A stretch of DNA of 64,000 bases from Octopus sinensis (lineage: Eukaryota), in the NCBI RefSeq assembly GCF_006345805.1, contig NC_043012.1, positions 43,710,001 through 43,774,000 of the forward strand. Reading direction: 5' to 3'. The notes under the pieces are model-generated. The model saw only the letters and a program-made list of their open reading frames with translations. It was not told the origin of the DNA and searched no databases. Made by a program: the position numbers and the translations under genes. How positions within the stretch are numbered: position 1 is the stretch's first letter; every line of letters starts with the position of its first letter. Positions 1 through 63,879 of the stretch are shown here, piece by piece.

Positions 1-1460
1 TAAGAAGACGTAAAAATTACAGAAATAATAAAAAAGCAGTTAAGAAAATTCCAAAATTGGAAGAGTCTGGGACCGGATGGGTTCCAGGGTTATTGGATGA
101 AGAAGCTCAAAGGACTCCTTGAAATGATAGCGCAACAGCTGGATGAGTGCTTGCAGGAAGGCGCAGTACCCAGCTAGATGACAAAGGGAAAGATGTTCAT
201 GTCTCCCAAGGAATCTGAAAAGGGAAATGTTGCATCCAACTTTTGACCAATAATATGCCTTCTGCTAATGTGGAAACTAATGTCAGGTGCTTTGGCCGGT
301 GAACTGTATCGATACTTACAAAAACGCGGGCTGCTACCTATTAAACAGAAAGCGTGCCGATAGAGGAGCTGAGGAACGAAGTATCAGCTCTTACTTGATA
401 ATTTAATTATCAAGAACTGCAAGAGAAGGCACACAAACATGGGTTGACTATCGTAAAGTACACGATATGATACCACACTCCTGGATAATAAGAACAATGC
501 AAATGTATGGAGTAGCAGTAAATATGAGAAACCTTATATGGAATAACATGAAATGCTGGAGAACGGAATTGACAGAAGGGAATCAAGTATTAGGAGAGGT
601 GGAAATCAAGAGAGGATTCTTCCAAGGGAACAGTGTGTCCCCATTGATCTTCGTGCTGGGAATGATTTTCTTGAATGCAATACTACAGAAAACATGTTGA
701 GGTATGATCTGGGAACGGATAAGGAAAAAATTGAACCACTTGCTATTCATGGACGACCCGAAGCTATTCACAAAAACTGGGGTAGAACTGGACAGCCTAG
801 TCCAGTCTGTGTGGACTTTCTCCAATGATATTAAGATGGAGTTTTGCCTCTCAAAATGTTCTACAATGGTGAGGAAACGAGGAACCTTTGTTAGAACAGA
901 AGGTATATGGTTGCCAAGTAGTGAAATCCAGCTATAAATACCTGGGAATGCTTGAGGTAGATGGAATCAAACGCAATGACATGAAAGAAAAGACAAAAAG
1001 AGAGTACCTGCGGCGAGTGAAAAAGATATTGGCTTCAAAGCAATAAACTCACGTGCAGTCACAGTAGTTCAGTATGGCGTTGGAATCCTGAAGTGGACAG
1101 AGGCATAGCTAAAGGAGATGGACAGGAAATCAAGAAAGCTCCTAACGATGCATGGAGCTCATCATCCATGAGCAGACACTGATCGCCTATACATAAAGAG
1201 GGAAAATGGAGGAAGGGAACTGATGAATGTGGAAGATTGCGTGCATATCGAACTCGAGAGCTTAATGAAATACCTAGCCCAAAGTAAGGAAACCTTGTTA
1301 GTGAGAGTTAGAAACGGGGGCGTATTGAAAGCAGAGAAAAAAGGAAGAAGTACAAAAAGGACATGAAGGAGAATTACTCAAGAAGGGACTACGCAATCAA
1401 TTCCATGCAGCCACAATAGAAGTTGCTGGACAAAAATAGGTGGGATTGGCTGATGAAAGT
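1..1460 (+). mobile_element. Decayed non-LTR retrotransposon reverse transcriptase, R4/Dong-like; runs off the window start
   Basis: RT motifs in successive frames with stops and frameshifts: WKSLGPDGFQGYWMKKL, YDMIPHSWI, RGFFQGNSVSPLIFVL, NHLLFMDDPKLF (YxDD equivalent), YKYLGM, MDRKSRK..MHGAHHP.ADTDRLYIKRENGGR. Confidence 0.9.
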
Positions 1461-2989
1461 AACATTTTCTTGGACAATGTTTTCTCCAGTCTTACTTTCA
1501 CTTGATTTGTGATTATCTTTTGATTTTTGTCTGAATTCTTCATTTAAAACAGAGAAACTATTGGGTGATTAAAATTGTTTTGTATGATTATATGAGAAGT
1601 CATAACTTTTAGTAGTCTTTCTAAGAGTAATCCATTCGAGGTGGGGGATAAAAAGTGAGTGGTTTCTTTGGTTTTTGTTGGCATTTGAAAAAGTTTTACT
1701 TTCAGGAAAGGAACAAATTTATTGTTCTCAAGGCAAAATTTTAAATGAGTTCGCATTTTTGACAGATCAAATAAAAATTCTCTGGAGAATTTCCAATGAC
1801 TAGTTCAAATGCGTATGCAAGGGTAAAAGGACCACAGTTGTATGGGCAAACTTGGGGATTAGTAATTTGAACCTGTTGAACTGTAGGAGTCATTGTGGCG
1901 AGTAGCGTGTTGTTATCTGAGCGGTTAGTTCTTGCGATACTGATAAATTTAAACTACTATAAACATAGACATCTCCGAAAAAATTGCTCCCATAAAATAA
2001 AATGATTACTTTTGGTATGATGGATAAATAATGTGGGGTGTGGGCTATAGGTTAGAAATTCCGTGTGAGAAAAAATGGTAGGTTGAATAGAAACGTCAAC
2101 AAACTTGTTACATGACATTTGCCCCGAAAGAAAAATGACTTCTCATATTTCACATCAAACGTTCTCAACCAAAATGTTCCCTTGCTCATTGGCTCAGAGG
2201 AATGGAAAATCAACTTTTTCAGCTTCTTTTCTGTTTTTGTCCTCAGGAATGAAATTTCCTTCTTCTTAAAGTTCATCAGACAATTACACAAATAACTGAA
2301 ATGATTTTCAGAAGAACATACCTGTTCAAGGTTACTCAAATTCTTCTGAATGTCTGCACCAAGCGATATTAATTTTGAACTTTGGTGTTGAATAATGGCG
2401 TCGATTATGTGAAATAAATTGCTCTCACCAATAAATTTTAACTTTTGAAGCAATGAATCGTCAGGCTGTGATGTACACACATTGGTATATTTGATGCAAG
2501 CTCTTCATGTTTTATCTGCTGTCGTCTGCAGGTATCCAGAAATGATAAATGGCTCTTGATTTTAGCGCGAAAACAATTAAGTTAACTGATAGAAATGTCG
2601 ATTTTTCATTTTTATATTCGTACTTGAATGGTACAAAGTCCATTGTCCCAGGAGTTGGCTCAACACTAGGGTCTAGTGAAACTTACAGGGCTGACAAGCC
2701 AACTGTGAAATGGAATAAAACACAAAATCTGTAATTTTTACTACGATTTTCCTTAAGACACTCACCAGTTTAGGTAGCTACCTGAATTTCTAAACGTTCC
2801 AATTCTTATTCGGTATAACATAAAATCAATCATCTCAATCTACTTGATTTTGATAATTTATAAAGATTGACATAACTCTTCACGAAGGTAAATAAACAAT
2901 AAAAAGAGCGCGATGCGATTTGTAATAGAGATTGTTTATCTAACGGTTTGAACAATATTTCAACAGATCGTCTGTCTTCTTCAGGTTCA

Positions 2990-2990
<1 letters not shown>
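1461..2990 (-). mobile_element. Possible 5' region (pLTR plus N-terminal coding remnants) of a Penelope-like element
   Basis: Starts on the minus strand at a hammerhead next to an (AT)n tract. It is followed by Lys/Leu-rich ORF pieces 2052-2480 and 1544-1756 reminiscent of PLE N-termini. No RT motif seen. Confidence 0.35.
2948..2990 (-). ncRNA. Minimal type-I hammerhead ribozyme
   Basis: Minus strand: TTGAAC-CTGAAGA-A-GACAGA cga TCTGTT-GAAA-TAT-T-GTTCAA. 6-bp stem I, hairpin stem II, palindromic AATATT at stem III. Confidence 0.8.
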
Positions 2991-3035
<45 letters not shown>

Positions 3036-18921: not shown

Positions 18922-19068
18922 ATGAGATATAATGGTGTCAATAAGACCCAAAGTTGTCAGAAAATACTGAGTATGTGCTATGGACAGACTATAGTTAAGC
19001 TCCAGGTTTGGTGATTATGCGAATGAGGAGTCCAACGTAGGTCATGTATCAGCATGTGTATATATAAA

Positions 19069-19152
19069 AAATTTTCAGAATGAGATAAAAATCCAAGGCT
19101 GTGAAAGATTTTAGAATCTTTCACAGCCTTGGATTTTTATCTCATTCTGAAA

Positions 19153-19156
<4 letters not shown>
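19069..19156. repeat. Perfect inverted repeat, 42-bp arms with 4-nt spacer
   Basis: AAATTTTCAGAATGAGATAAAAATCCAAGGCTGTGAAAGATT-TTAG-exact reverse complement. Confidence 0.95.
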
Positions 19157-19188
<32 letters not shown>

Positions 19189-19748: not shown

Positions 19749-19809
<61 letters not shown>

Positions 19810-19810
19810 C

Positions 19811-19953
19811 ATGCTTCTTTCGGTTTACTTCTACCAAATCCACTCGCAAGGCTTTGGGCGGCCCGAGGCTATAATAGAAGACACTTGTTCAAGACTGAAC
19901 CCAGCACCATGTGGTTGGAAAACAAGCTTCCTTCACACAGCCACGTCTGAGCC
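19811..19953 (-). mobile_element. SINE family A, 5' half (internally deleted)
   Basis: CTACCAAATCCACTCGCAAGGC...CACACAGCCAC matches the family A head and body. Confidence 0.75.
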
Positions 19954-21044
19954 TATTTATATATATAAACATATATATGCATGTATATATGAATGCTTAT
20001 ATGCATATACATATAAGTGTGTGTAAATGTATGTTTGTATAACAATAACAAAGTGAAATACAGCCAACATATTTCAAGCCTTTGACAAACAAGTTGGTTA
20101 CAAGCTTCATTCACCGCTAAACTAAATGATGCTAATTCAGAATTACTAAACCGAAGATATTATCTGAACTGAAGAATTGCAGAACTAGTATAGCTATTCC
20201 CATTTATTTTTACGTTTCATTTGTAGTAAATTTTCCGAATTCTAAAAATATTATTTATCTGGGGATATTTTAAACCTATTACTTGTCATACATATCCAAA
20301 TTCTCCATATTGAACAAATAATCTTCCCTAGCCACTGGCTGTCATTTTGCTCTGACTCTTCCTAAAATTTTATTGAGTGTGCAATTACAGATCGAAAAGC
20401 ATATAGAATGCCTGAAATATAGAAATTTGAATATAGTTTTTCATGTTGAGAGAGTAGTATAGACATGTTGCTTTGATATCTATCGGACAAGTCGTTATTT
20501 CCCTAAAAACTGGTTTTGACCGGTAAATACACAGCCAAATAAACCAACACCATAAGTCGGTATTCTATGTGAGCCTTCCCATGTTATATAATATACATCC
20601 GCGTGCATATGTATATTTTGATATTTGCGCACACATACACACTTGTATGTATATATAATCTATGCATGTATATATACATGCAGATGTCAAATAAATTATT
20701 GTCACAAGACTAACACAGTTTCCTTTGTAAAAGAATATCTACGAAAATAGTAGGATGGTCAACGTTTCTGATTTGTATTTCTTTGTAGTCAGATAGAGTT
20801 TGGTTGCGAAGGAGTGGTTCAAGAAAATTCTAGGCTTTGCAGTTAATGCAAGGAAGGAAGGCATCGAAACTGGTCGAGGGCAAAGAAAGAAGAGAGAGGA
20901 TGCTTGAAATCACTCAGTGAATGTTTTTCACTCGCGGCTATTTTTCTCTCAGGACAGGAGGATGATTAGATATCAGTAGAATTTAAATCATAATGAAGAA
21001 ATATACTTACTTATATGGAGACATATAAATATGTTTAGTTTAAA

Positions 21045-21350
<306 letters not shown>

Positions 21351-21351
21351 T

Positions 21352-21760
21352 CCACCGGCGACGCTGCCGCTCGCTCACGAACGCGACGGGCGGACGGAGA
21401 ACGCCGAGCTAAGGCATGCGCCTTGAGGTTGAGACGCTTTTGGAGAACAACTCGGGTCCGGCGACGGTTCCGGCTTAGAGGCGTTCAGCCGTTATCGCTC
21501 AGAAGCAGCCTAGCACCACCGCTCTATCGAGCGAGCGCGCAAACCGTTGCTCTGATCCTGCGGTTCCTCTCATACTGGACGGGATAGCCATAGCCGAGTT
21601 GACGTTGCCGGCGTCCGCCTAAGATCGGCAGAAACGTCGGCGGCGGCGACGGATAACGCGCGAGTGCGCCGATGCCACCGCACACCGAACCCCCTACGCG
21701 ACTCGGGGCACCGCGTATGCCCGATGCATCGGTAGGATAAAACTAACCTGTCTCACGACG
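21352..21760 (-). pseudogene. 28S: 28S rRNA 3'-region fragment (includes the sarcin-ricin loop), dispersed pseudogene
   Basis: Minus strand contains CGTCGTGAGACAGGTTAGTTTTATCCTAC, CCAGTATGAGAGGAACCGCAGG (SRL with a C>T change) and GGCTGAACGCCTCTAAG in the eukaryotic LSU order, separated by GC-rich expansion sequence. It forms a GC island in AT-rich DNA. Confidence 0.9.
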
Positions 21761-21853
21761 TAGTGGTTAAGTGCGCGGGTTACTAACCCCAAGATTCTGA
21801 GTTCGATTCCAGGCAGTGACCTGAATAATAATAATGATAATAATAATAATAAC

Positions 21854-21893
<40 letters not shown>

Positions 21894-22110
21894 TAATAAT
21901 AATAATAATAATAATAATATAATAATAATAATAATAATAATAGGAATGAGAACCCAGGTTCGAAATTTCCCCAAGATACCTGATGAAGGCTGGATGGTAT
22001 ATCAGCCGAAACGTTGTGTTACCAACAAACAAGATGAGGACAAATACCCGTCAAATGTAAATAATGTAAATAATGTACGTAATTCCTCATCTCTTAAATA
22101 TAGAACTGTA
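21757..22110 (+). mobile_element. tRNA-head + (AAT)n + hammerhead element, right copy
   Basis: A-box-like GTAGTGGTTAAG, B-box GAGTTCGATTCC, (AAT)n at 21824-21941, then hammerhead GATAC-CTGATGA-A-GGCTG gatggtatat CAGCC-GAAA-CGT-T-GTGTT (21975-22020). The tail is shared with 39706-39836. Confidence 0.85.
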
Positions 22111-22239
22111 TCACCATATCGCTGATTTCAAAAGACATCTTTACCACAGTAATTCTTATTCATTCGTTATGTTCTCTGCATATTTTCAATATTAATTATG
22201 CATTTTGAAATCGATTAAGCACGCATGCACGCACACACA

Positions 22240-24715: not shown

Positions 24716-24796
24716 TCTTTTCTTCTTCTTCTTCTTCTTCTTCTTCTTCTTCTTCTTCTTCTTCTTTTCTTCTTCTTCTTCTTCTTCTTCTTCTTC
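24716..24796. repeat. (TTC)n repeat
   Basis: Seen directly. Confidence 0.95.
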
Positions 24797-26163
24797 ACTT
24801 TTTTTTATGTGTCTAAAGATATTGTGTAGCATTTTGGTTAATCAATTAAAATGTTTCCATGTTTTGAACGAAAAGCAGAGGGAACAGCAACAGGATTTGA
24901 TTACAGAAATGTGAGTGATGGAATATTGTATAAATAATAAAGTTGAGGGTATAATGCATCAGGCCTATTACATCGTTGCATCATCGTTTACTGCAACTCC
25001 TCCTCCTCAAATGTTATACAGTGACCTCTTCGAATTAAATTCAAGGCTTCTGTTTCATTAAATACCTTTCATGAATTTCCATCATCATTAGCGAAATAGC
25101 TGCAGCAGGGAATTACAACTGAAATTAACTAATCTTCACTTTACAACACTCCTCACTGTCACAAAATCTTTGAGTGGGGAGAAGTTCAAAGCCAACGCGC
25201 TAACTCTACCTTCGGTCATTGGCAACTTCAAATGGAACCAGAGCAACTTGAATTATTTATTGATATCCTCTAACCAGCAGCTTACCTCAATTGCATGGCC
25301 ATCACCGCCTTTTAAGCATAATGAAAACAGTTTTGTGTTAGAAACTTACAACAGCTACCAGTGAGTGTGCATGGGTTGGTGTGGGGTGGGGTGCACACGT
25401 AATTGATAGAACAACACTCTTCTTATTCGCAAATCAAACAAAACAGTGCACTGGCGCACGCACGCACACACACACACCAACACACCTTCCTACACAATGA
25501 AACTAAAGCCGTCCCTTTCCCCCCAGTCATACATAAGGCTGACAGCTTCAAACCTCAGCTCGCCAATTCCTCTTTTGCTTATATGTCACGAGGAAATGTG
25601 TGGTTTCAGAAGTGGGTTAAGTCGTCTTTAGGGTCACATGACTTCCTGTTGACTTTGAAAGAATAAAAAAAAAGAGAAAAAAAGATTTTCATGGCAGACT
25701 ATCAAATGTTTTCCACATGGGACAACTGAAGTGAAAGCGGTGCCAGCAGCTAGTTAACTATAAGACTGAATTACACAGAATTCCTATAACTGTATTAGTT
25801 TATTTTATCACTATATAGCTGTAATTTATGTTGCTGTATAGCAATTTCCTTTTCTTCCTGTACCAATAGACTGTTATTGCATTATACCATTATAAATATT
25901 ACAACATTGATATCCAGTGTTGCTACACTGCTTATCGCAGTCTCACTGTATAAGACAATATACTACTGTTGACTTAGTAACGGTACTGACACAGGCAGAT
26001 TTAGTTGGGATATCTACTACGTGAAAACGATCGCATTATAAAACTTCATTACTTCCGCTCAACTACTCAACAACACTTTATACTACAGCATTGCACTAGA
26101 ACGGACCAACAAAGGAGTATGTTTGTGATCCTCAACCAGAAATACACGTCAAATCTCCCTTAA

Positions 26164-26918
26164 CTTTATTCCCCAAAGGTGGGTGGGATGTACAATATGA
26201 CCCGCCACCACCACTGTCAATATGATCCCCCGCCAACTCGGTAAGAGTTGTGATACTGAGTGTTTGCAACTTTCAGTTTTAATATATTTGGCACGTTAGG
26301 GAGCTTTGCTATGTTTATGCATGCGTTCTTTAAATTTTACTGGTCCGAGTGTCACATTTTAACCCTCTCAAATTTTACTTTCTGCGATGGAAATCGCATC
26401 CATGCCTATTGCTTTATGTGTGATTTCTTTTTAATGGATTCTAGAATATAGCGTAGTTGGGTACATTTGTTGAGGTCTGATAAAGTTCCATATGAGAGTA
26501 ATCAGTGTTCATTGCCTTTACCAGTTGCCGAAAACTTTTGCCTCCCGCAATAATTGTATTTTTATGGGAAAAATCATAAATATTAGACTGCAAATACCGT
26601 ATATAACCTTATAATAAATTATTCAAATACCATGCAACATTCCTAGGCTAATTTAAGAACTCACGTAGGCAAGGTAGCAAATTCACTGCCAAATTTTGGA
26701 ATTTTCCAAAGATATCCTAAAATTGCTGATATCAGCAGGATTTATGACGTCACAGCAAGCAATTCAAGACAAAACTAAAAGTACATGCATTGACCTACCA
26801 CCATATGAAATTTCAAGTTTATACCAAATTCCAGTCAAGCGTTAGTGGTGGTGGTGGTGGTAGGGTGGGGGAGACAGTATGACACCCTCCTGTAAGGAAT
26901 AGCTTGTAGATGATAAAG
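26164..26918. mobile_element. Possible non-autonomous piggyBac-type element
   Basis: TTAA-CTTTAT...ATAAAG-TTAA ends (TTAA at 26160-63 and 26919-22); subterminal (A/G)TATGAC(A)CC motifs near both ends; no ORF. Confidence 0.45.
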
Positions 26919-27584
26919 TTAAAATGCCTATAAAAGACGGAACAATGCAATAGATAAATGTAGTTATACATACCCAACAAAGGTGGTAGATGGGATGGTT
27001 ACAACTGAACTTCTCTTTATCACTCATTGGGAGTTGACATGCATTTACAACATAACGCTACAATGATAGACAGGGAGATGATAATATATGTAATATAGGG
27101 GAAAAGCAAGGGATATTGAGGGCAGAAGAGATGAATACATCGATCACCAGAAGCAGTGCCTCTTTTATTGAGTTTAGAAGGAAGAAAAGTTGACCTCGGT
27201 GGAATTCACTCTCAGATTTTTAATAATATGGATTATTTGCTTTTAATAATGACAATAAGCCACTGATTTCCTTTGAAGTGGAACGATAATTGCCACAAGA
27301 GACAAATAACTGTTCAAATTTATTATTTAACAACATTATTATATTAGAATGTTCGTTTATTTTTCTAAAAGTCAAGGCAAGTTAAATTTGGAGTTAATAA
27401 CAGTTTTCTTTAGCCTTTATTTTTTATTTCTATTAATTAATTATTTTTTGCATTTTTTCTCATTTGTAACTCTTTATTTATATTTCCGTGTTGTTCTTTG
27501 TCAATGGAATGCTAAAAATAACATAATACCGTGGATATAAAACAAAGAGAAACTGAAGATGATCTAGCTGTGCTTTGGACTCTA

Positions 27585-27714
27585 CTCGCCTGAAGACGCG
27601 AATGTATATAGCTATTGTTGGATTAAATAAATGCAATAGTGTGAGTAATATGTATAACACCCAGCAGTCCAGCAGTTACCAGCTGATACTGATATACCGA
27701 AACAATTGTAGTGG
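27585..27714 (+). ncRNA. Hammerhead ribozyme with ~100-nt loop II
   Basis: TCGC-CTGAAGA (27590)...GAAA-CAATTG-T-A-GTGG. Perfect palindrome ACAATTGT, GUA triplet, stem I with G.U pairs. Confidence 0.6.
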
Positions 27715-27751
27715 TTTTTGATAAAGCATCTTCTCGTATTAAAATCCATTG

Positions 27752-27851
<100 letters not shown>

Positions 27852-27857
27852 TATATA

Positions 27858-28019
27858 GGCGCAGGAGTGGCTGTGTGGTAAGTAGCTTGCTAACCAACCA
27901 CATGGTTCCGGATTCAGTCCCACTGCGTGGCATCTTGGGCAAGTGTCTTCCGCTATAGCCCCGGGCTGACCAATGCCTTGTGAGTGGATTTGGTAGACGG
28001 AAACTGAAAGAAGCCTGTC

Positions 28020-28083
<64 letters not shown>

Positions 28084-28320
28084 TATGTGTGTGTTTGTGT
28101 GTCTATGTTTGTCCCCCTAGCATTGCTTGACAACCAATGCTGGTGTGTTTACGTCCCCGTCACTTAGCGGTTCGGCAAAAGAGACTGATAGAATAAGTAC
28201 TGGGCTTACAAAGAATAAGTCCCGGGGTCGATTTGCTCGACTAAAGGCGGTGCTCCAGCATGGCCGCAGTCAAATGACTGAAACAAGTAAAAGAGTAAAA
28301 GAGTAAAAGAGTAAAAGAGT
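27858..28320 (+). mobile_element. Full-length tRNA-derived SINE family A with internal (TA)n and (AAAAGAGT)n tail
   Basis: Head GGCGCAGGAGTGGCTGTGTGGTAAG...GGATTCAGTCCC, body GTGAGTGGATTTGGTAGACGGAAACTGAAAGAAGCC, 3' CAGCATGGCCGCAGTCAAATGACTGAAAC; several homologs in the window. Confidence 0.9.
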
Positions 28321-28355
28321 ATATATACATATACATATATATATATATATATACA

Positions 28356-30030
28356 CCTATATTTCGCCGTATAAGACGACCTTTAAATTCTAAAATTTAC
28401 TCTAAGAATTTGGGGTCGTCTTATACCATTATTCTGAAAATCAAACTTTGAATTCTAAATGATTTTATAAGTAAGCTAACCTCGACCTCGGTGCGATAAC
28501 CACAGACATACGTGAATACATTAACAAAATAATAAAATAATTATAACATAGGTAAATAAAAACATATTTACTTTATATATTATTGGCATATCTTCATAAT
28601 AAATAGCCTGTTCGAGAGATAATGCTATATCATTGAAATCAACTTTTATCTATGGAAGGTTTGCTGAGAAAATGTAAGCATTGCGTTATGGCTACGCTCA
28701 CAGTAACCTTTGTCTTTCGCTAACCTTTCAAAAGTTTTAATGGTGATGTATAACTGTACTAAAAACATTTAGAACGGAGATTTTCAAACTTTTTGGGCCA
28801 CCACCCCCTCATGATCTTATATTAATCTCAGTGCCCCCACCCCTATTTTTATGTATAAATAAATATTTTATATTTTACTAATTTATATATACTATGAGTC
28901 ATTTGATATTTAATATATTATATCATTTGTATGCAATACTATAATAATATTATAAACTCATAGCACCCCCCGATCCACTACCTTCCGCCCAATGTCTCCT
29001 TTTTTCTATCCCCCTCCCCGCACCGCCTCTTAGACCCAGCGCCCACATGGATCCTCTCAACTCCCACCAGGGGGCGGTAGCGCCCACTGTGAAAACCTAT
29101 GATTTAGAATAACATATTTTTATTTTTCATAAAATATCTATTATCATTTGGTGGTAAATAACACAATTTGGATTATACACAACCTTTAGTTTTCAAGAAA
29201 ATTCTTTTACAATAGTTGCAATTAAAACATACATCATAATTTGTTTTCCCTATCAAGATAAATAATATTAAAACATCAAACCTGCCACATGTATTTATCT
29301 AAAACCCATCAAATTCCTCACAGTCATCACTATCTGTTTTTAAAAGTTTGTCATACATATCACAAGATTCATCACGTATGCCATCATCGTAAGGATTCCA
29401 ATCTTGTTCTGGTGAATCGATTTCGACTATGTCGTCGCTATTGTACAGAATATTAGCTTTGGTACCATCCATGGCAACTGAGATACTGCATTTTTTAAAT
29501 GATTTTATTTTCTACTTTAATTTTGTCTTATGCCTTTATAACAAAATCACAGAGAACTTCAAGTGAGGCAGCATGCATAGCTCCACCATTTGTAAGAGAT
29601 TTTTCTCCATTCACCATCCAGTCATTCCATTACTCTCTCACATTATCTTTAAATAACTAACATCAAGTGGCTGCAATATAGAAGTCAAACCATCAAGAAT
29701 AACTGCAATATCAGTATTAGTTTTGGATAACTGGGTTTTAGTATTTGTCGTTACGTGGCTAAGAAACATATCCCAAATCAATAAGCTGTCACTTGGCCAT
29801 CTGTTGCTTTAAAATCTTTACTTTCTTCTTTATATAATTTAGCCCATTTTAGGGCATAAGATCTTATTTTATTTCGTGTTACAATATAGCCATCTTGTCT
29901 CTGCTGGAGGACCCATTCTGCTACATCCTTTTCCAACTTCAGCCAACGAGTGCTTCCTCTTCTCATTGCACATTTTTGTTTGTGCGCTTGTCTTAATTTT
30001 TCCTCATTCTTTTTCCACTCTCGTACCATA
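28356..30030 (-). mobile_element. pogo/Tigger-family DNA transposon, internally deleted
   Basis: CENP-B-type HTH VREWKKNEEKL...LEKDVAEWVLQQRQDGYIVTRNKIR; DDE_1 piece IWDMFLSH...DGLTSILQPLDVS; pogo-like end CCTATATTTCGCCGTATAAGACG with inverted CGTCTTATAC. Confidence 0.85.
28775..29101. mobile_element. hAT (Charlie-like) MITE nested in the pogo element
   Basis: 8-bp direct repeat ATTTAGAA at 28767-74 and 29102-09; imperfect ~16-bp TIRs CGGAGATTTTCAAACT / CATAGGTTTTCACAGT (reverse complement). Confidence 0.7.
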
Positions 30031-31357: not shown

Positions 31358-31579
31358 GTGTGCGTATGTGTGTGTGTTCGCGCGCGCGTGTGTAAACAGT
31401 TAACAGATAAGATGGAGAGAATGTATGCATAGAAAACATTTTGTAGTGCTCAAAACATTTGAGCTTACACTCCGGACCAAGTGAGCAGATATAGAGACAA
31501 TAATCCATATAAAGAGTAAAATTCTTGGTTTTGAGGTACAGAATATATAGTATTCTTTTTTATTTTATTTTATTTTATT

Positions 31580-31939
31580 AATTTCAGTTATTTGACTGCG
31601 GCCATGCTGGGGCACCGACTTTAGTCGAACAAATCGACCCCGGGACTTATTCTTTGTAAGCGTAGTAATTATTCCATCGGTCACTTTTGCCGAACTGCTA
31701 TGTTACAAGGACGTAAGCACAACAACATCGGTTGTCAAGCGGTGGTGGGGGACAAACACAGACACACAAATATATATATAAAAATATACGACCGGCTTCT
31801 TTCAGTTTCCGCCTACGAAATCCACTCACAAGGCTATAGTAGAAGAGAAGGCACTTGCCCAAAATGCCACGCAGTGAGACTGAACCCAGAGCTATGTGGT
31901 TGGTAAGCAAACTACTTACCACACATCCACTCCTGCGCC
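31580..31939 (-). mobile_element. SINE family A, near full length
   Basis: Reverse-complement homolog of 27858-28320 from head to tail. Confidence 0.88.
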
Positions 31940-32049
31940 TATGTAATCATGCAAATAAAGAAGACTGAAAATTTTCAGATGATTAACTTTCAAGTATAAA
32001 TATATATATTTGTATATCAATAAAGCAAACTTACATTACATAGACTCAA

Positions 32050-37563: not shown

Positions 37564-39705
37564 GACCGAGAACATACATAAACGTATGTATGTTTATGTA
37601 TGTATGTGTGTGTGTATTTATGTATGTATCTACGTATGTGTATGTATGTATGTACGTATGTATGTATGGTGTGAATGTCATTATTCAGTTTTATTTAAGA
37701 TTTCTTGCCAATAGAGAAAGAGCCGGTTTCTAACCTAGATCCAATACTTCTTCATTGGAATTTCATCAACGTCAACATGGTATTTTTGTATGTATGTATA
37801 TGTGCAGTATTTGGAGTCAGTGCATATGTAGATTTGTATGTTTTGTTTTATGCATGTATTCTCATGCATATAGTTGCATGAGAATACAGATTTTTACAGT
37901 TCCAGTGATGGATTGGCTCAATAGTCTTCGAATCATTTTTCACCTTTCTGGTTTTGAAAAGTCTAACTTCGCAAGATTAGTATCTAGGCAATGTGTTACA
38001 TATCCCAGTGTCCCAATAATTACAGATATAAATCTGGACTCATAGTTCAGCGTAGGTATTTTCTCTTTCGGTACTCTTTCGGCAGCTGATTTCCACAATT
38101 ATACACAGTTTCTCTTCTCTATCCCAAATCACTACGTCACGTTTGTTATGTTTACATTTTATTGAAGTTTTCACTAAGACATTCCACCAGTAGTGCTTCT
38201 TATTAGGAGTGGCTATAGTGTTTACCATACTGTAGGTTCTTATTTCTTTGGCCTCTGGGTTATCCTTCCGACGGATCTCATTAAACAGTGTCTTAGCTAC
38301 ATTATGTCTCTGCTATAGATAATGCTGTGATGACATTTTAGGAGAATTGCTTATAATGTGGGTGATATTCCCTGTTCCTGGATTGCAAACGCATGCCCTT
38401 CAGGCTAAGAGTTTGTAGTCCGGCTATTGGTCCATGATAGACTGCTTTGATGATCAATGTTATTATCCCGGAGCTTTCCGCTACAATCTATGTATGGCTT
38501 TCTACTAGCTCATCCTTTCATCCTTTCATCCGATGACGTGTTGCGCTAGATATACTGCATGTGTTTAAGGTTATCAGACTAGGAATGCAGTTCAAAGAGC
38601 TGCTTTCCAAGTCTCATGATGTTAGTTTCATCATGTATGCAAACTTGGTCAAGGGATGCACTTCGACACTTGGTGGTCTAAAGATGTTGCCGAAGGGATA
38701 CGATACGACATTCAAAAGCAGTCTGCCTGCTTTGTTTTTGTTTTAGGTAGAGGCGGTCTACATCGTTGTTGACGTGGAAATTATGTGTGCTGATTACTCT
38801 CTTCCGGGTTTTCACATCAAGACTCGGATCTCATCAAGCGTCCATTCAAGTAACACAAATGTTGGTATGAGTACTGGTACTGCAAACACATTGTCGGCCA
38901 CTGTTTTATTGATTGCAGAGAGTTCCAAGGTCCATATTTTCTTTGTTCGGCAGTAATATTCTTTAGTGATATGTGTCTTGTTACAGGTGCCATCATAAGA
39001 TATGTTTTCGTCTACCCTTAGACACCTATAACATTCTTCATCGGATACAGGGAAAAACAATTAAATCATTGATGGAGATGTTGCTAGTCTGGTTTACCGA
39101 TTTCCCTCTTTTCAAAACCATATAGCAACGTTCATCTCGACCAAACTCCATGTTTTAATAAGGTCAAGGGTCCTTTTCATCTCATTCATATTATTGGCAT
39201 ATAGTTTCAAGTCATCCACGACGGGACAGTGAGTAATTTTTTTTCTATTTCTTTGTGAATCAATGAGATATCCTTAAGACTTCCTTAACATGAATGACAA
39301 GGGGGTTACAGAAAGTATAATCAGCATCACAGAGATGTTGTCCCCTTGGAATATACCTCTGCGATATTGTATTATATCAGTGATAATACTATCATTCCTT
39401 GCATTTAACTTCAAGATAGTGCCCTACGTTGAAGTCAGGTCAGTTATGGCTTTGGTCATACTCACTAGACATTTTGCAAGTCTAAGGACTTTTAGCATCC
39501 ATGAGTAGGGAATAGAATCAAAGGTTTTCATGTAGTCCAATCACATTCAAAATGAGGTTCCTCCTAAGTACCCGCACCTCTGACTTTACAGTTTTATTTA
39601 TTAACAATTGCTCGGCATATCCCCAGACTTCCTTCTTCTCAGCTGCTTGTTCTGCTGTGATGATGTTATTACTGTCACTCTATTCTTGGAAGAATGTTGT
39701 ACATA

Positions 39706-39836
39706 TGTTCGATATCTCAGAGATGAAGAATTCTGTACATTACCTATATTATTTACATTGGACGGATGTGTCCTCATCTTGTTTGTTGTTACCACAACGT
39801 TTCGGCTGATTTACTTTCCAGCCTTCCTCAGGTGTT
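39706..39836 (-). mobile_element. Hammerhead-plus-tail copy of the 21-22 kb element inserted in the LINE RT
   Basis: Minus strand AACAC-CTGAGGA-A-GGCTG gaaagtaaat CAGCC-GAAA-CGT-T-GTG, then AACAACAAACAAGATGAGGACA..TGTAAATAAT..AATTCTTCATCTC, homologous to 21975-22105. Confidence 0.85.
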
Positions 39837-40275
39837 CTGGTAGAAAACTAAAAGAGGCAGCACATATGCTAGGACACAATAACCTCCTGAGCGTTTTCGT
39901 TTATACTGTTTGGGAGAAGGTTATTTTCAGATCTTGTTTTAATAAAGTTACATTCACTAACTTTCTTTTTATGTTCCACAAATGTTGCTTGCTGGCGTAA
40001 TTCTTTCGCAATAAAATAATTTAGTTCTGGGTGCAGGTCGTCCCAGTATGATTTCATTCTATTCATATAGCCAACAGCGGGGTCCTGTTTCTCTGGGGTT
40101 TTTTTTATTGACAGTTAAATAAATCAGTATTCAGTTCATAACTCCAAGAAAATGTGTTTTGTAGTTAAGGTTTCTTCTATAACTACAGCTAGAAGGAGTC
40201 TCTTTGCCTGTTGAGCTGCTGTTTTCATTCTGATCTTCGGTTGTGTTGTTGATGTTGCCGTGTCCAGCCATGGTA

Positions 40276-41545
40276 CGAGGGACGTTCAATAAGTAATGCC
40301 CCTGACCCATTTGCCGTTGTTTGATCTAGCTGCAATTTTGCATGTGCACTCATTTATATCTCTATAGAGTAAGTGACAAATTACAGCTCTGAACTAATTG
40401 TGGTTTCTGATTTACAGGTGTTTGAACTGAGTCAAGTGTGAAATGGAGGCTGTTGAGTGTCGAGCAGTGATCCGGTTTTTGTATTTGAAAGGACGCACAC
40501 TACGGGAGACTTTTGATGAAATGAAAGTAGCTTATGGTGATGATGCCCCATCATATGACCTTGTAAAACGCTGGGATCGGGAATTCAAACATGGTCGGAA
40601 CTCTGTGGAAACAGCTCCCAGATCTGGTCGCCCCCTTCTGCCATTGATGAGGCATCTGTCCGTCAAGTTGAGGCTGCCATTTTGGAAGATCGACGCATAA
40701 TTATTCGCCAAATAGCCCATGAGGTCAAGATTAGTACCGGGTCTGTGGAAACTATCATTCATGACCATTTGCATATGCAAAAGGTGTCTGCCAGATGGAT
40801 TCCCAGGTTGCTCACGCCTTTCCAGAAGCAAGAACGCGTCGAGTGATCGAGGATGAATTTGGAGATGTGCCAAGAAGATGAGTCAAAATTTTTCAAAAGA
40901 CTGATTACACAGGATGAAAGCTGGGTCCATCACGATGATCCAGAGACCAAAGCCCAGTCAATGCAGTGGAAGCACCGTGACTCAACCCCTCCAAAGAAGG
41001 CAAGGGTGCATCCCTCCGCTGGCAAGGTCATGCTCACAGTCTTCTGGGACCAGGACGGAGTAGTGATGACAGATTTCCTGGCAAAGGGTACCACAATTAC
41101 AGGAGCCTATTATGCTTCACTTTTGAGGAAATTAAGAGAAGTTATCAAAATCAAGAGGCGGGGCAAGATCAGCAAAGGCATCCTCTTCCTGCAGGACAAC
41201 GCTCCGGTCCACAACTCGCTTGTCGCCAGATCAGAAGCACAGGCGTATGGCTATGAACCCTGTGACCTTGCACCCTCTGATTTTCACCTCTTCCCAGTCA
41301 TGAAGTTGTTTTTGAAAGGAAAGCGTTTCCCAGATGATGCAGCCTTGATTTCTGAAGTCACGTTCAGGTTGGAGGACCAAGCTGGGGTCTTCTACAAAAA
41401 CGGTCTCCAGAGCCGCATCAAACGAGGTAGAAATGCGTAACTCTGGGTGGTTCCTATGTAGAAAAAGACTAATAACTGTGCCAAGTTTCGTTGCTCTACT
41501 GCTATAGGAAGTGGGTCAGGGGCATTACTTATTGAACGCCCCTCG
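40276..41545 (+). mobile_element. Full-length mariner (irritans/Hsmar2-like) with TIRs and TA target duplication
   Basis: 34-bp TIR CGAGGG(A/G)CGTTCAATAAGTAATGCCCCTGACCCA at both ends with one mismatch; TA on both flanks; 1270 bp. Confidence 0.95.
40443..41440 (+). pseudogene. mariner DD34D-type transposase pseudogene
   Basis: MEAVECRAVIRFLYLKG..., frameshift after SGRP (~40633), ARWIPRLL, TGA at ~40844, ITQDESW, LQDNAPVH, short deletion before DLAPSDFHLF. Confidence 0.92.
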
Positions 41546-45039: not shown

Positions 45040-46551
45040 CCTTCCACTTACATCCTTCCCCTTAAGTTATGACGGGATTTCGTGTGCAGCTCAGTCAAAA
45101 GCAGCAATATGGAAGAAGGAAGAGAAATTATTACAACAAGATTTCGCAAATCTATGATATTTTGCAAACAACTTGCTCATGCAAGTGCTACCAGACAAAG
45201 GCTTTGCATGCCGAAGCCAGCAAGTGTATGGAGTCATCAGGAGAGAATGCGTCCTGTTGTACACCGGCCCCCTCACTGACATAAGAACACGCTTCGTAAA
45301 TCAGCTGGTTAGCAGATATAGTTCAATATTCTTCTAGCCATCGTCCGTCGTTTCTTTTTCAACAAATCCAGTAGCTAGCCTTCTCCACTGTAGTTTGGAT
45401 ATCGCTCATGGTGGTATTTGCTTTACGATGAGTTAGGCCTAACGATAACAACAGTCACCTCACACTGTGTCCAACGAATCGTCTACGTCCGACTTCGACT
45501 GGAAAATGCTCCGCCTTCCAGCCTGCGTCTTCACATTCCTCGCGGATGTTTACATACCAGTCAACCTTTCGAACCCGAGCGGCGTCCATGTTATCTTCGA
45601 ACCGTTAACTCGATTAGATTCACCACTTTCTTTTTTTCTTTCATACCACATTATAATATCCGGTTTTTTCATAACTGGGATAAGAAAGAATCCTTGGCAC
45701 TCTGGTAAATCGGTAGCCACCACCCAATAGCCTTTCTGCTTTGCATCGCTCACGGGAAGGTTCCCCTTCTTCTTGGAACGGATCTGCTGTCCGTCCTGAG
45801 TGCAAGAAGGTAATGAAATCTCTGTCTGGTTCTTTCAAGGTTTTTTTTCCACCGTTGATGAGAGCAATCTGGTTCTTTATAGCGTTGAAGATAACCTTAA
45901 GGAGCAGATTGTGTCTCCGCGTATATCTGTTCAATGCCAGTAAACAGTTGGAAAGAATATGTTTCAGTGTTCCGACTTTTCGGCATTTGCATATATCATT
46001 TTCTGAGACGTCCCATCTTACTAGATTTGTAGGTGATGGCAAGACATCATAAAATGAACGAATCAGAAAACTTAGACGTGGTGTAGTCCACCTCCGTATC
46101 TCATTCCATCTTATTTTCCTCTTAACAACACGTTCCTCCCATCTCGTCATCTGTCCTTGCTGAGCGCATTGGATCAAATGAATCTCTCTTCTCTCTGTTT
46201 CACTTGTTTCGGCGTTGTTGCTAACAACAGATCTGCGTTCGCTTTGCAACATACTTGCAAACGGTCTGAATCGATCTGCACCAAATGTGCGTTGCACCCA
46301 CCATATCTCGGTGTGTAAGTGAAGACAGAATGTCATCAGTCTCTGCTTCTGCTTTCCACTTCCAGGCTATTTTACATCTGGTGGATTACGCCTCATTTTT
46401 ATGTCATTCGACTCTCTCAGCATCATCACCGTTCATTCCTTCCCTAGTTTATGAATTTCGACTATTGACGCCAGTAGTAACGGCAACGAGCCTCTTTTAC
46501 GATAGAAAGTTGAACCGTTCAATATCTGAGGTAGGCCTAGCCACTTTCTAA
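45040..46551 (-). mobile_element. HERO-like non-LTR retrotransposon 3' part (post-RT, CCHC, RLE)
   Basis: IRKWLGLP; AQQGQMTRWE; LSFLIRSFYDVLPSPTNLVRW; CKCRKVGTLKHILSNC..ALNRYTRRHN; KKPDIIMW...LIELTV. Confidence 0.88.
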
Positions 46552-47574: not shown

Positions 47575-48323
47575 TACATACACACACACACACACCACAC
47601 ACACACACACAACACTGCTTTCCCACTAATGATTTTTGCTTTGTGGATTTATAATTATACACATACATATATATTTTCTAAAATAACACAAAGAAAATTG
47701 TATCATGTGTCATTTATCTCTCTTTCTTGGACTGCAGTGACACAGACAGTTAACCACACATAATATACTGAAGAATTACGTTGAGATAAGCAACCAGTGA
47801 ATCAAGTCAAGTAAAGAACGTACCACTAGAAACTCCAGTCTGCTGTAAACTTTCCTTCATATACATACTGTGTTGTGCTAATGCCATCTAGAGAGATTTT
47901 AACATCAATCCATCACAATCTCCTACAATCCTAAAAAGCCAATATAGACAAATTTTGTGAAAGTTTCCAAATATCCTGCTGTAGTTGAACGAATTTTACG
48001 GTAATATTTTTGCGGTAATAAGGATTTGGTTATGTTCAGTTAACATAGAATAGATTATCATCAGATTCTCTTATGGTTTTCTCCAGTAGTTAGCACCAAA
48101 GGGACAGTATTTTCGTGTCACTAAACTACAGAACTTGTGTAATCTTATTTGAAAAATAAGAGTGCATTGTGTAAATCTCCTGACTTTTACAAACGCCAGA
48201 CTTGTAAAAAATAAATACGTATTAATTTATATCGCAAATTATATTAATAATGTACTGCAGTAAGTAATTTATCAGATTACTTAACCGTTGTATATTGCTT
48301 ACATGCTTTGTGTATACAGTAAC

Positions 48324-49613: not shown

Positions 49614-49939
49614 TAGAATAGAACTTGTGTAATCTTATTTGAAAAATAAGAGTGCATTGTGTAAATCTCCTGACTTTTACATGTATGTGTGTGTACATGT
49701 GTATTATGTATGTGTATGTTTATGTATATGTATGTATATGTATATGTATATGTATGTGTGTGTGTATATGTATATATGTGTATATATATGAGTGTACGCG
49801 AGTATGTCGATGTATATGTAGGTATGTAGAGTTATGTGCATGTGCAGGTATGTGAGTGTAGATACAAATTGTAGATGTGTATATATGTGTGTGTGTGTAT
49901 ATATACATGTATATAGGTATATGTATGTGTGTGTATATG

Positions 49940-55892: not shown

Positions 55893-58546
55893 TAAGGAAA
55901 GTGTCGTGCCTGTATTAAAACCTAATAGAATGGTACTATTTGCTGTGTTAAAGCAGGTAGAGGAAGAAATAGACAGACTGGAGAAAATAGAAGTTATGCA
56001 AAAAGTAGATTATTCTAAGTGGGCAACACCAAATGTGTGTATTAACAAAATAGCACACTCAGGGTGTGCGCCGATATTTCTACTGGTTTGAATGAGTGTC
56101 TAAAAATGTGCCATTCCAGAGGATATTTTTGCAATATTAAATGGTGGCAAAATGCTTTCGAAACTGGATCTGTCTGATGCGTATCTGCTAATTAAGGGAG
56201 ACAAATGTTCGAAGCTTCTAACAGTGAACACACACAGAGGACTATACAAATAAAATAGATTGCCATTTGATCTGAAGGTCGCACCCGCAATATTTCAATA
56301 GATTATGGATGCGATGTTGGCGGACTGTCAATTCTCAATTCTATACCTCGATGATATATTAATTAAAAGTGAATCCGTGATCAGTATATCGAACATGTGA
56401 AGTGTGCTTTTCAAAAAATAAGAGATTATGGTTTCACACTCAATGAGCAGAAATGTGAATTCTTTTTGCCTAAAATTAAATATTTAGGGCAAATTATAGA
56501 TAAAAATGGAAGACGATCTGACCCGTCGAGGGCACACACAATTAAAAAATGTCTCCCTCAACTAACATAGCGATATTACAAGCTTTTCTTGGCCTAGCGA
56601 ACTGTTATCAAAATTACATACCAAACATATTGAGAGCTCCACTTTATAATTTGCTAAATAAAGACGCCAAACAGAATTGGTCAAATAAGTGTTAACAGGT
56701 GTTTCAGGATATTAAAAAATATTAATTTCGGATTTGTCGCTGGCTCATTTCGATCCTGCAGCGGAGATTATTGAAAAAGCTCTAGTGATTATTTTTGCCT
56801 TGAGGAAATTTCACACATTTTTCTACGATACAAGTTTTCGGCTTCAGACAGACCACCGACCGTTACTATCAATTTTCAGATCGAAGAAAGGAATTCATTC
56901 TTGGTAAACAACTCAACGCTGGGGTACAACATTGTTAAATTACAACTTTAAGATGGAGTACATTCCTTCCAAGAAAATTGGCCATGCGGATTGTTTATCT
57001 AGACTAATTTCGAAGAATCTAGACTAATTTCGAAGAATGTGATAGCTGCATTACAATCAGAAAAGAAATTAAAAACGTTATGTGCAATGTCATTCAGGAG
57101 TCGCCAGTGACTGTTCAAGATATAAAAAGTAAATCAGCGGAGGACAAATATATCATAAAAATGAAGGAAACCTTGAAAGATAAACAAAAGTGAAACACGA
57201 ATGCGAACCATTTTTCACTCTGCGACGATGTATTAATGTATCCACAAAGAGCGGTAGTACCAACTATACTACAGGAACAGATATTTCATGAATTTCATAG
57301 TGGACCAGAATGAAAGCTTTGACGAGGAGTTACGTGTATTAGCTGACAATGGACTGGGACATTGAGAATTTGGTAAAATCATGTAGAGGTTGTGTGCCTG
57401 CAGCCAAGGTACTACTGGTGAAATACCAATCGTGGCCTGATAGCCCGTGGTCCAGGCTACGCAAGACCTGTGAAAGGTACGTCCAACTTAATCATTGTTG
57501 ATAGCTTCACCAAGTGGCCGGGAGTATGTAGGTGCAGTCAACCTACCTCGAAGGCAACAATAAAGTTCCTGCACGAGCCTTTTGCTAGATACGGTGTTCC
57601 GGATACCATAGTATCGGACAATGGAACACAATTTACAGGATGCGAGTTCAAGGAATTCTGCAAAATGCATGCAATCAAGCACATGTTTATCCTGCCCTAT
57701 TATCCGAGGTCAAACGGGGAAGCAAAACGATTCATAGACACTTTCAAGCGAGCGCAAAAAAAAAAGCAAGGAACAAGTTAGGAAATTACGAAACGCTTAA
57801 GGGTGTAAATAATACAATGACGAAGCTGTACAATATAACGCCCAACCCAAATACCAGTTCAGGCAAGTCGCCTGCAGAGCTAATGTTCACTCGAAAGATT
57901 AAATTGATCTTCAACAAATTGCTGCCAAAGGAAAACACGTATAGAGAAAATACAAAAAATTCAACAAGCATGTTGATGTCGAAGACAAAGTTCATTTCAA
58001 ATTATACAAGAACGGTAAAGAGAGTTACCAGGATGGTGTAGTGACTAAAAGAATTGGAAACGACACATAAAATCAATTAAAAATCAGACATACAGAAGAA
58101 AGGGAGGAAATTCTAATGGAAGTAATTACATGTTCAATGTGCCAGCACCGAAAGAGATTGAGCCTTGGAGGAGCAGTGACAGAAAACGTAAACAGACTGA
58201 AAATTTAAAAACATAATAATTCCTAAGCGGAAAAGGTACTCAACTCCTTGGGGAAGCAAAATTTCCAAAAGGGGGAGGTGTTGGACAGAAAGAAAAAAAT
58301 AATAATAAAATAGCTTTCGTTTCTTACCGAAGCCGAAATCTCAAAAGGGGAGATGTTGTAGCGAGAGTCACTTCACCCCCTACGAGAACAGATTTGACCG
58401 TACGAGTATAAATAGTAGCGCAGCGGTCTGAGTAATCGAGACAGTAGGCGTTTATCGCAGGAAGTCGTAAGGTTCGTTTTGGTAGTTTGTCGGAATATCG
58501 TTTTTGGTTCGTGTATAGTTCGTGGCGAGTTTGTTGGTTTGTTACA
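55893..58546 (+). mobile_element. Ty3/gypsy (Mag-like) LTR retrotransposon, 5'-truncated, decayed pol with PPT and 3' LTR
   Basis: RT VEEEIDRLEK..VDYSKWATP, SKLDLSDAY, NTHRGLY, YLDDILI; RNase H QTDHRPL; integrase LIIVDSFTKWP, FARYGVPDTIVSDNGTQF, YYPRSNGEAKRF; RT-RH-IN order. Confidence 0.92.
58354..58546 (+). repeat. Probable 3' LTR (~190 bp)
   Basis: TGTTGTA...TGTTACA directly after the polypurine tract AAAAGGGGAGA; TATAAATA inside. Confidence 0.65.
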
Positions 58547-62244: not shown

Positions 62245-62445
62245 TTTATCTTTTACTTGTTTCAGTTTTAATATTGCGATAATGCTGAATTACTTGAAGA
62301 ATTTTAGTCAAACGAATCGACTCCAGTACTTATTCTTTTTTCAATCTAGTACTTTTACCGGATCGCTAAGTTACGAGAACGTAAACACACCAACACCGGT
62401 TGTCAAGCGGTGGTAGGAGACAAAGACACAAAGATGCAGACACAC
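62245..62445 (-). mobile_element. SINE family A, 3' half (decayed)
   Basis: GCTAAGTTACGAGAACGTAAACACACCAACACCGGTTGTCAAGCGGTGG matches family A. Confidence 0.7.
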
Positions 62446-62539
62446 CACACACACACACACACACACACATACACATGTATATAGATAAATAAACATGTGT
62501 GTATGTATATATACATATATATGTGAGTATATATATATA

Positions 62540-62635: not shown

Positions 62636-63879
62636 TTAGTCGTCAAGTATGAAATTTGTAGAAAAGAAGAAATGTTTGCGAATGTTTAATAAATACGAAG
62701 AGTTTTATTCATCAAAGTATGCACCCATATTGTCAATACATTTTTGCCATTTCAGCGATAGCTTGTCCAGCACGGAACTGTAAAATCTTGGCAATCTAGA
62801 ATCAATAAAATCTTGGAAGGCCTGTTGTCGGAATTAAATTTTTTTCCTATCAAAAAGTTATCCAAATTCTGGAAGAAGTGGTAGTCAGTGGGGGCAAGAT
62901 AAAGTGGGTATGGTGGATGATGGAGACCTTCCAACTCCAACTCCTGCAGTTTTGCCAATGTAATTTTTGCGATGTGGTCTGGTGTTGTCTTGCAATAAAA
63001 TAAGAGTGGATCTGTTGACCAATCTAGGCTGTTTTTTCTTTTTCTTTTTGTAAATTTCTGCAAAGTTTGGTCCAGTTGGCTGCAGTATACTCCGGCCGTG
63101 ATTGTTGAGTCAGGTTTAAAGAAATCATAATGGATCACTCCTGCGCCAGACCACTAAACACACACTATCAGCTTCTTTTGATGAATTTTGCTTTTTGGAC
63201 TGTGATTTGGCGGCTCATCTTTATCCAATCATTGTGCTGAACATTTACGGTTGTTGTATTGGATCCATTTCTCATCACATGTTACAATTCGATTAAAAAA
63301 ATGATTCATTTTTGTGACGAGAAAGTAGCATAATGCAGGCTTCCGAATGTTGCAGTTTCTGATTTTCGTTGAGTTCATGTGGAATCCACTTATCCAACTT
63401 TTTCACTCTACCGATTTGAACTAAGTGAGTCAATTTTGTTTGCTTACCAACAACAACGATAATTAATGAGCACTTTGAGATGGATCTGACGAAACAGTTC
63501 GTTATTATTCACCTTTGCTCATTTGTAAGGTCAAAGTTACCAGAACGAGTTTGTAAATATATTCGATACTGTCTGCTGTGTAATAGCATTAGAATGAAAT
63601 ATTGCATTGATATTCCGAGCTGTCTGTGATGCTGTATTTCCAAGAAAGGACTCATATTTCAAAACTGTACAAAATTTCCGACTTATCCATCTCTAAACAA
63701 AAATAGCAAGACACGAGTTATAAATACTTTATAAAGCGCAAAATGAGTCAGAATAAGGAAATAGATGTATCAGCTTTCTAACAAAAAATAAAGATTGTCA
63801 AAATATAATAATGGCGCAAAATGAGCAGCTGTCAAAGTTTACCAGAACCTTACTAAAAATTTCATACTTGACGACCTAA
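62636..63879 (-). mobile_element. Full-span mariner with TIRs and decayed transposase
   Basis: TIR TTAG(G)TCGTCAAGTATGAAATTT at both ends with TA flanks; KWIPHEL, RIVTCDEKWIQYNN, HHPPYPLYLAPTDYHFF; several frameshifts. Confidence 0.92.

Follow-up and report, generated by a model that had tools for sequence, protein, structure and literature searches.

The repeat family described here joins a tRNA-like head to what appears to be the 3' end of a Penelope-like element (PLE). We read it, with a probability of roughly 0.6, as a tRNA-headed SINE whose uncut RNA is copied and inserted by a PLE; the hammerhead motif would be part of the borrowed PLE end. The wider statement, that a tRNA SINE has come to tens of thousands of copies or more in octopuses through hijacked Penelope machinery, with a Pol III head, a PLE pseudo-LTR end and internal initiation at two sites, we consider an even bet. 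The family was recognised in 64,000 nucleotides of Octopus sinensis DNA (NC_043012.1, positions 43,710,001 to 43,774,000; the window), an AT-rich stretch crowded with microsatellites and transposon remains, in which LINEs are abundant. Papers are cited from the passages available of each.

In the proposed mechanism, a PLE pseudo-LTR end, comprising the hammerhead and some 95 nt, would once have been attached downstream of the (AAT)n in a tRNA-derived sequence and would thereby have gained an internal promoter. Transcription by Pol III would continue as far as the first T run of the flank. The protein of a PLE would attach to the borrowed end and nick AT-rich DNA. Reverse transcription would then start internally, at either of two positions in the RNA, which would account for the short and the long end class. 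With uncut RNA as template, the hammerhead would be a part of the borrowed module rather than a required cutter. Template switches would give rise to inverted pairs and to the capture of other RNAs, here 28S rRNA.

Anatomy of the copies

Copy 2 has the order head, (AAT)n, 32-nt segment, hammerhead, and tail (Table 1). Its head carries A and B boxes at tRNA spacing and is of the short-variable-loop type. A head pattern gave two matches in the window against none in 100 shuffles, the pattern having been derived from the same two heads that it matches. The first run of four T past copy 2 lies at 22183 and none is internal, which is compatible with Pol III transcription. Neither ARAGORN nor Rfam called a tRNA in the copy 2 head, and Rfam hammerhead models did not match the hammerhead motif at E values up to 10; the tRNA and hammerhead labels therefore rest on motif anatomy. 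Folding of the head predicted no cloverleaf (z-score -0.49, not significant). Window-wide Rfam matches were rejected as microsatellite artefacts. A resemblance of the head to tRNA-Ser GCU had been proposed in the original prediction. Serine tRNAs have a long variable arm, and in copy 2 the anticodon loop lies 15 nt from the T-loop; the head is therefore not serine-type, and this origin was rejected. The layout proposed there, an A/B-box head followed by (AAT)n, a minimal hammerhead and a tail, holds for copy 2 and fails in copy 1, which is without the B box.

Table 1. Repeat copies and other features of the window, numbered from its first letter
Feature	Position	Strand	Remarks
Copy 1	21048..21350	-	Head with A box, (AAT)n, hammerhead; short end class
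28S rRNA fragment	21351..21760	-	Between both heads; same sense as copy 1
Copy 2	21757..22111	+	About 355 bp
Copy 2, tRNA-like head	21757..21823	+	From motif anatomy; without the first bases present in the copy 1 head
Copy 2, A box	21757..21766	+	
Copy 2, anticodon-like loop	21780..21786	+	
Copy 2, B box	21799..21810	+	
Copy 2, (AAT)n spacer	about 21824..21942	+	About 118 nt
Copy 2, segment between (AAT)n and hammerhead	21943..21974	+	Also in copy 1, absent from copy 3
Copy 2, minimal type I hammerhead	21975..22020	+	PLE-type architecture as given in the available part of PMC4209133
Copy 2, stem I	21975..21979 with 22016..22020		5 bp
Copy 2, hammerhead core	21980..21986		
Copy 2, unpaired A	21987		
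Copy 2, stem II	21988..21993 with 22002..22007		6 bp
Copy 2, GAAA	22008..22011		
Copy 2, palindrome			AACGTT
Copy 2, predicted cut	after 22015		
Copy 2, tail	22021..22111	+	95-nt tail
Copy 3	39707..39835	-	Hammerhead and tail only; long end class
Old LINE remains	38340..40115	-	N-terminal and RT remains, flanking copy 3
Fourth minimal hammerhead	2945..2990	-	Other family; 6-bp stem I, 6-bp stem II, AATATT palindrome
Dispersed repeat family	27852..28327; 31544..31945; 19749..20015; 62323..62522		With inner (TA)n
Mariner-like transposase, integrase and LINE remains	40200..41440; 62752..63153; 57422..58041; 45641..46366; 1..1100		By eye
Inverted repeat	19059..19167		110 bp, near-perfect
Direct repeat	48130..48191; 49620..49681		62 bp, exact

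The segment between (AAT)n and hammerhead has a pyrimidine run and AG, resembling a splice acceptor, where helix I starts. Every conserved hammerhead base is present in copy 2, with G10.1-C11.1, and helix III is absent; by its bases the motif appears to be a minimal type I hammerhead of the PLE pseudo-LTR type. This anatomy agrees with the cut after GUU that had been predicted. All three copies retain an intact core and palindrome. A loose minimal-hammerhead descriptor found four sites in the window, namely the three copies and an unrelated site at 2984; 100 shuffles gave 0.04 sites on average and never more than 1. The unrelated site adjoins a (TA)n run, has decayed upstream frames without Pfam support, and is probably an old PLE end. 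The predicted active fold of copy 2 has -11.1 kcal/mol, compared with -11.8 for the best alternative, and the folding z-score of the hammerhead (-1.55) is not significant.

Selection on the ribozyme structure had been suggested from a stem II that is kept while its loop varies. The chance of finding no change in 12 stem II positions is 0.19-0.37 at 8-13% divergence, so an unchanged stem is expected by chance often enough that the comparison has little power, and stem II conservation was rejected as proof of selection. Loop base 21995 is G in 89-97% of family depth; the loop variation there is therefore one copy's own mutation.

Copies 1 and 2 form an inverted pair, pointing apart, around a fragment of 28S rRNA. 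The Rfam match to this fragment scores 95.7 bits (model 3007-3161), and a second, weak piece corresponds to model positions of about 2969-3002; together they cover 21449-21600 and 21727-21760, the rest of the piece being assigned from continuity and high GC. The fragment overlaps the copy 2 head by 4 nt (21757-21760). Copy 1 lacks 23 nt with the B box, and a second deletion of 18 nt directly after the cut site leaves it a stem I of only 3 bp. It stops at the equivalent of 22073 and copy 2 at about 22110, so that the extension is found at one end of the pair only. No target-site duplication was found at the ends of the unit, the best match being 8 nt long and about 40 nt off the end. We infer that the two copies and the 28S piece are probably one composite insertion made with template switches. 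In PLEs, an inverted 5'-truncated copy beside the insertion, with the tail on one end only, has been described (Craig et al. 2021); the window holds one such case.

Copy 3 is 85% identical to copy 2 over 129 nt and can be aligned only from 21978 onward. Its upstream sequence is unlike that of copies 1 and 2 and contains no head. It sits amid old LINE remains (RVT_1, E = 4.4e-6), which we take to be R4/Dong-like and whose spacing is apparently too short for an intact element. The count of three copies in 64 kb thus stands as a count of sites; as three independent copies it was rejected, since copies 1 and 2 flank one 28S piece and copy 3 matches only from 21978. The other dispersed family of the window, with its inner (TA)n, presumably resembles a known octopus tRNA SINE.

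Linkage of head and tail

Linkage is the weak step of the preferred reading. Each of the two heads in the window is followed by the tail, probably as the result of a single insertion. Elsewhere, in one contig of sequencing run X15, 17 letters that resemble the start of the head (14 of 17 as in copy 1, by eye) are joined directly to 21973. Against a PLE-mobilised SINE, one of the three window tails has no head, and the junction between (AAT)n and tail has 17 extra nt in copy 1 relative to copy 2, a difference that independent joins would also give.

These observations bear on a tentative alternative, about which we are doubtful, in which the mobile unit is the hammerhead and tail only, a short or 5'-truncated PLE derivative. 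Such a unit would often land in the (AAT)n of a separate tRNA SINE, and the combination of head and tail would be a local or minority chimera. The headless copy 3 with its other upstream sequence would be explained, as would the unequal junctions of copies 1 and 2, and five X15 contigs with copy-3-like sequence upstream of 21978 suggest that another family has this end too. In the anole PLE, which nicks AT-rich DNA, the endonuclease prefers ATT (PMC11167929). However, a unit inserted into (AAT)n would be expected to be followed by (AAT)n, and copies 1 and 2 are without it. The 3' flanks among the ends listed are mixed, a sample that is biased since contigs break at microsatellites. In addition, the two window heads carry the tail at similar spacing, and the X15 contig joins a head-like start to the hammerhead. 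On balance, we retain the tRNA-headed SINE as the likelier mobile unit.

Abundance and variation

The tail is present in 20 of 24 listed sequencing runs from organisms A, B, and C. Three DNA runs (organisms A, B, and C) contain 27,977, 24,754, and 28,804 matching contigs, and a fourth run, available as contigs only and guessed to be RNA, contains 3,056. Matching in these four runs used the stretch 21920-22215, with 21920-21954 left out, at 80% likeness. Summed depth reaches millions over 21960-22109 compared with 37-49 on the unique flank, a ratio of about 1.0-1.4 x 10^5 that is not a copy number. No copy has an open reading frame for RT and GIY-YIG as an autonomous PLE would. The family is short (below 700 bp), non-coding, dispersed and present in many copies, as SINEs are, its abundance being that of the tail. 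The prediction of a non-autonomous, dispersed retroelement with a PLE-type hammerhead is supported, and the family is very abundant (24,754-28,804 contigs per DNA run).

For a cysteine-rich membrane protein of Octopus sinensis, three isoform models (P0001, P0002, and P0004) start with 36 repeat-derived residues that are 83% identical, and the family therefore belongs in Octopus. The corresponding partial O. vulgaris protein (P0003) is without this start. Judged from these sequences, the repeat-derived start likely comes from an exonised copy located ahead of the true start. One organism B contig (22088-22215) covers the flank and the adjoining 23 nt of the tail, fewer than the 31-letter bridge rule requires; it is a weak hint that the copy 2 insertion is common to organisms A and B.

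Family variants were assessed over about 21984-22079. Copy 2 differs privately at 21995, 22022, 22047, and 22079. The two bases of the CpG at 22012/22013 change in 5-13% each and those at 22049/22050 in 12-20% each, symmetrically, as in neutrally ageing copies. At the 22007-22008 CpG, C-to-T is found in 7-12% of family depth and no G-to-A row of at least 3% at catalytic G12, which reflects either selection or a seeding artefact. None of the seven conserved core positions within the assessed span has a variant row at 3% or more.

Two classes of 3' end

Among the best 24 of 763 rows, all 16 loose 3' ends fall at 22068-22077 or 22108-22111. Both clusters recur in all four runs, about 35 nt apart, with main spacings of 34-37 nt. 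Each place among the listed ends is supported by hundreds of contigs, which are a small part of the family and may be a biased one. Copy 1 ends within the first cluster, and copies 2 and 3 end in or next to the second. In most listed end rows the flank consensus agreement is about 0.4; the flanks are therefore mixed (AT-rich), with no common poly(A) or (AAT)n.

In the anole PLE, reverse transcription starts at two internal sites downstream of the hammerhead, and the stretch between them is an optional genomic tail of 30-40 bp (Frangieh et al. 2024, PMC11167929). The octopus family has two end points at this spacing, and the stretch between them would be an optional extension of this PLE type. 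Its clusters lie 53-62 and 93-96 nt past the cut site, compared with a computed distance of about 85-92 nt for the first anole site. A predicted 9-bp hairpin (22032-22040 with 22084-22092) encloses the first cluster and is not significant against shuffles; the folding z-scores of the tail (-0.73 and -1.49) are not significant either. The two end clusters, the lack of poly(A), and the inverted pair with its one-end extension favour mobilisation by a PLE, as the original prediction held.

An ordinary SINE mobilised by a LINE, with a dead PLE fragment as passenger, is very unlikely. According to SINEBase, a LINE partner and a tail of simple repeats belong to the definition of a SINE (PMC3531059). 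LINEs are numerous in Octopus (PMC13282606) as they are in the window, and decay of the hammerhead palindrome amounts to 5-13% for each base, as at other CpGs. However, the family has neither poly(A) nor another simple-repeat 3' tail, its ends form two sharp clusters with mixed flanks, and the unit of copies 1 and 2 is without a target-site duplication.

Cleavage and the template

The tail is continuous across the predicted cut site in all three copies and in the contigs, and cutting was therefore no part of making them, unless the template was multimeric or circular. Hammerhead mutants of the anole PLE insert in vitro all the same, cleavage being dispensable (PMC11167929). Self-cleavage as a step of the cycle, as originally envisaged, is not supported. 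A retrozyme- or Sm-alpha-like cycle, in which tandem masters are cut by dimeric hammerheads, circularised, and reverse transcribed, is very unlikely: the core and palindrome are intact in 3/3 copies, minimal hammerheads cut weakly as dimers (PMC4209133), and no core position, G12 included, has a variant row of at least 3% even though the CpG partner of G12 changes in 7-12% (possibly a seeding artefact), but the copies neither begin nor end at the cut site, the unit runs from promoter to tail without being permuted at the ribozyme, and the tandem units of non-LTR retrozymes, each with a hammerhead, were seen neither in the window nor among the 15 of 78 joints listed (0 head-to-tail).

Source of the hammerhead end

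The hammerhead core pattern was found in six metagenome loci (L001-L006), four of them independent; L002 and L005 represent the same locus (3031 of 3033 positions equal). The six loci share with the octopus family only the hammerhead, which was matched by design, and therefore say nothing on stem conservation. In L005 a broken RT gene (RVT_1, E = 0.0094, below the Pfam cut-off) is found a short way upstream of the core. This RT piece appears to carry PLE-type motifs, and the stretch before the hammerhead looks like a PLE endonuclease; a comparison of the RT piece with PDB gave no match. L003 and L004 have endonuclease-like ends by eye, without Pfam support, and Pfam GIY-YIG had no match in the metagenome loci. 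L001 (400-680) and L006 (680-955) contain a repeat family with the same core from one metagenome, with no upstream frame recognised. All three window copies have an AG at most five bases before the core, as do L001, L003, and L006; L004 and L005 have none there. In Drosophila Penelope an intron ends at helix I (Cervera and de la Pena, PMC4209133). The parallel is suggestive only.

The hammerhead pattern was absent from the viral contigs and prokaryote genomes searched, and the tail had no match in plasmids. No autonomous PLE partner was found, the one match among 280 candidates of the partner-ORF search being the exonised copy. Comparison of the translated repeat with proteins scored no case of head-tail linkage (1 and 2,841 candidates) and returned two low-complexity matches.

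Relation to known elements

The Schistosoma repeats Sm-alpha and Sj-alpha, reportedly described by Ferbeyre in 1998 and Laha in 2000, are the precedent, as they and the octopus family both pair a Pol III-type promoter with a hammerhead. They are short non-coding repeats with a Pol III promoter and a type I hammerhead (PMC6765202, PMC8490949). According to these sources they are often tandem and are freed from multimers by cleavage, whereas the octopus copies are dispersed and span the cut site; the octopus family further differs in its helix-III-less PLE-type motif and PLE-type 3' ends. Canonical PLE pseudo-LTRs share with it the minimal hammerhead and two ends about 35 nt apart (PMC4209133, Craig et al. 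2021, PMC11167929), and canonical PLEs, in the same passages, also have the inverted 5'-truncated partner and AT-rich flanks. Unlike a canonical PLE, the octopus family has no RT-endonuclease reading frame and, instead of a PLE body, an A/B-box head and (AAT)n.

Non-LTR retrozymes have been proposed as PLE passengers that are tandem and form circular RNAs (PMC7761336, PMC7229834, bioRxiv 10.64898/2026.07.22.740005). The metazoan ones resemble the octopus family in being short, non-coding, hammerhead-bearing and, by proposal, non-autonomous. They are tandem, with a hammerhead in each unit, and give circular RNAs, whereas the octopus family carries a tRNA-like head, and none of its copies was found in tandem; the terms "Pol III" and "promoter" do not occur in the retrozyme passages available from PMC7229834 and bioRxiv 10.64898/2026.07.22.740005. 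Short non-autonomous Penelope elements are mentioned, without detail, for butterflies in the accessible part of PMC6685494. With tRNA-derived SINEs the family has in common a length under 700 bp, an A/B-box head, a lack of coding capacity, and many dispersed copies, and it departs from them, as far as the SINE passages at hand describe such elements, in having no simple-repeat 3' tail and an end of PLE type rather than LINE type. The same likenesses and differences apply to octopus families.

Ohshima and Okada are said to have reported the octopus tRNA-derived SINEs OK, OR1, and OR2 in 1994. The named octopus SINE families appear to have other bodies. The available passages of the octopus papers PMC9115989, PMC8967140, PMC4758252, PMC10886601 (main text), and PMC13282606 do not mention hammerheads, and the Bonar 2026 supplement contains neither sequences nor a mention of them. 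In the open-access literature, outside which most subscription papers fall, we found no description of a tRNA-headed SINE with PLE-type ends, and three sequence motifs of the family occurred in no paper text searched. As sequence, the family is probably already in repeat libraries.

Implications for cephalopod genomes

SINEs account for 11.6% of the O. vulgaris genome, and 893 of its 900 recently active SINE families are unclassified, according to the passages available from PMC13282606; the question of SINE partners therefore matters for cephalopod genomics. The many copies of the octopus family could show whether the hammerhead is a cutter or a module for binding and priming, a question left open in the accessible text of PMC11167929. 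If the family is real, it defines the minimum RNA signal required in trans by a PLE protein. If the wider statement is true, the family would represent a SINE-PLE partnership outside the SINE-LINE rule, with an end of 170 nt that acts as a naturally occurring minimal cis-signal for PLE reverse transcriptase.
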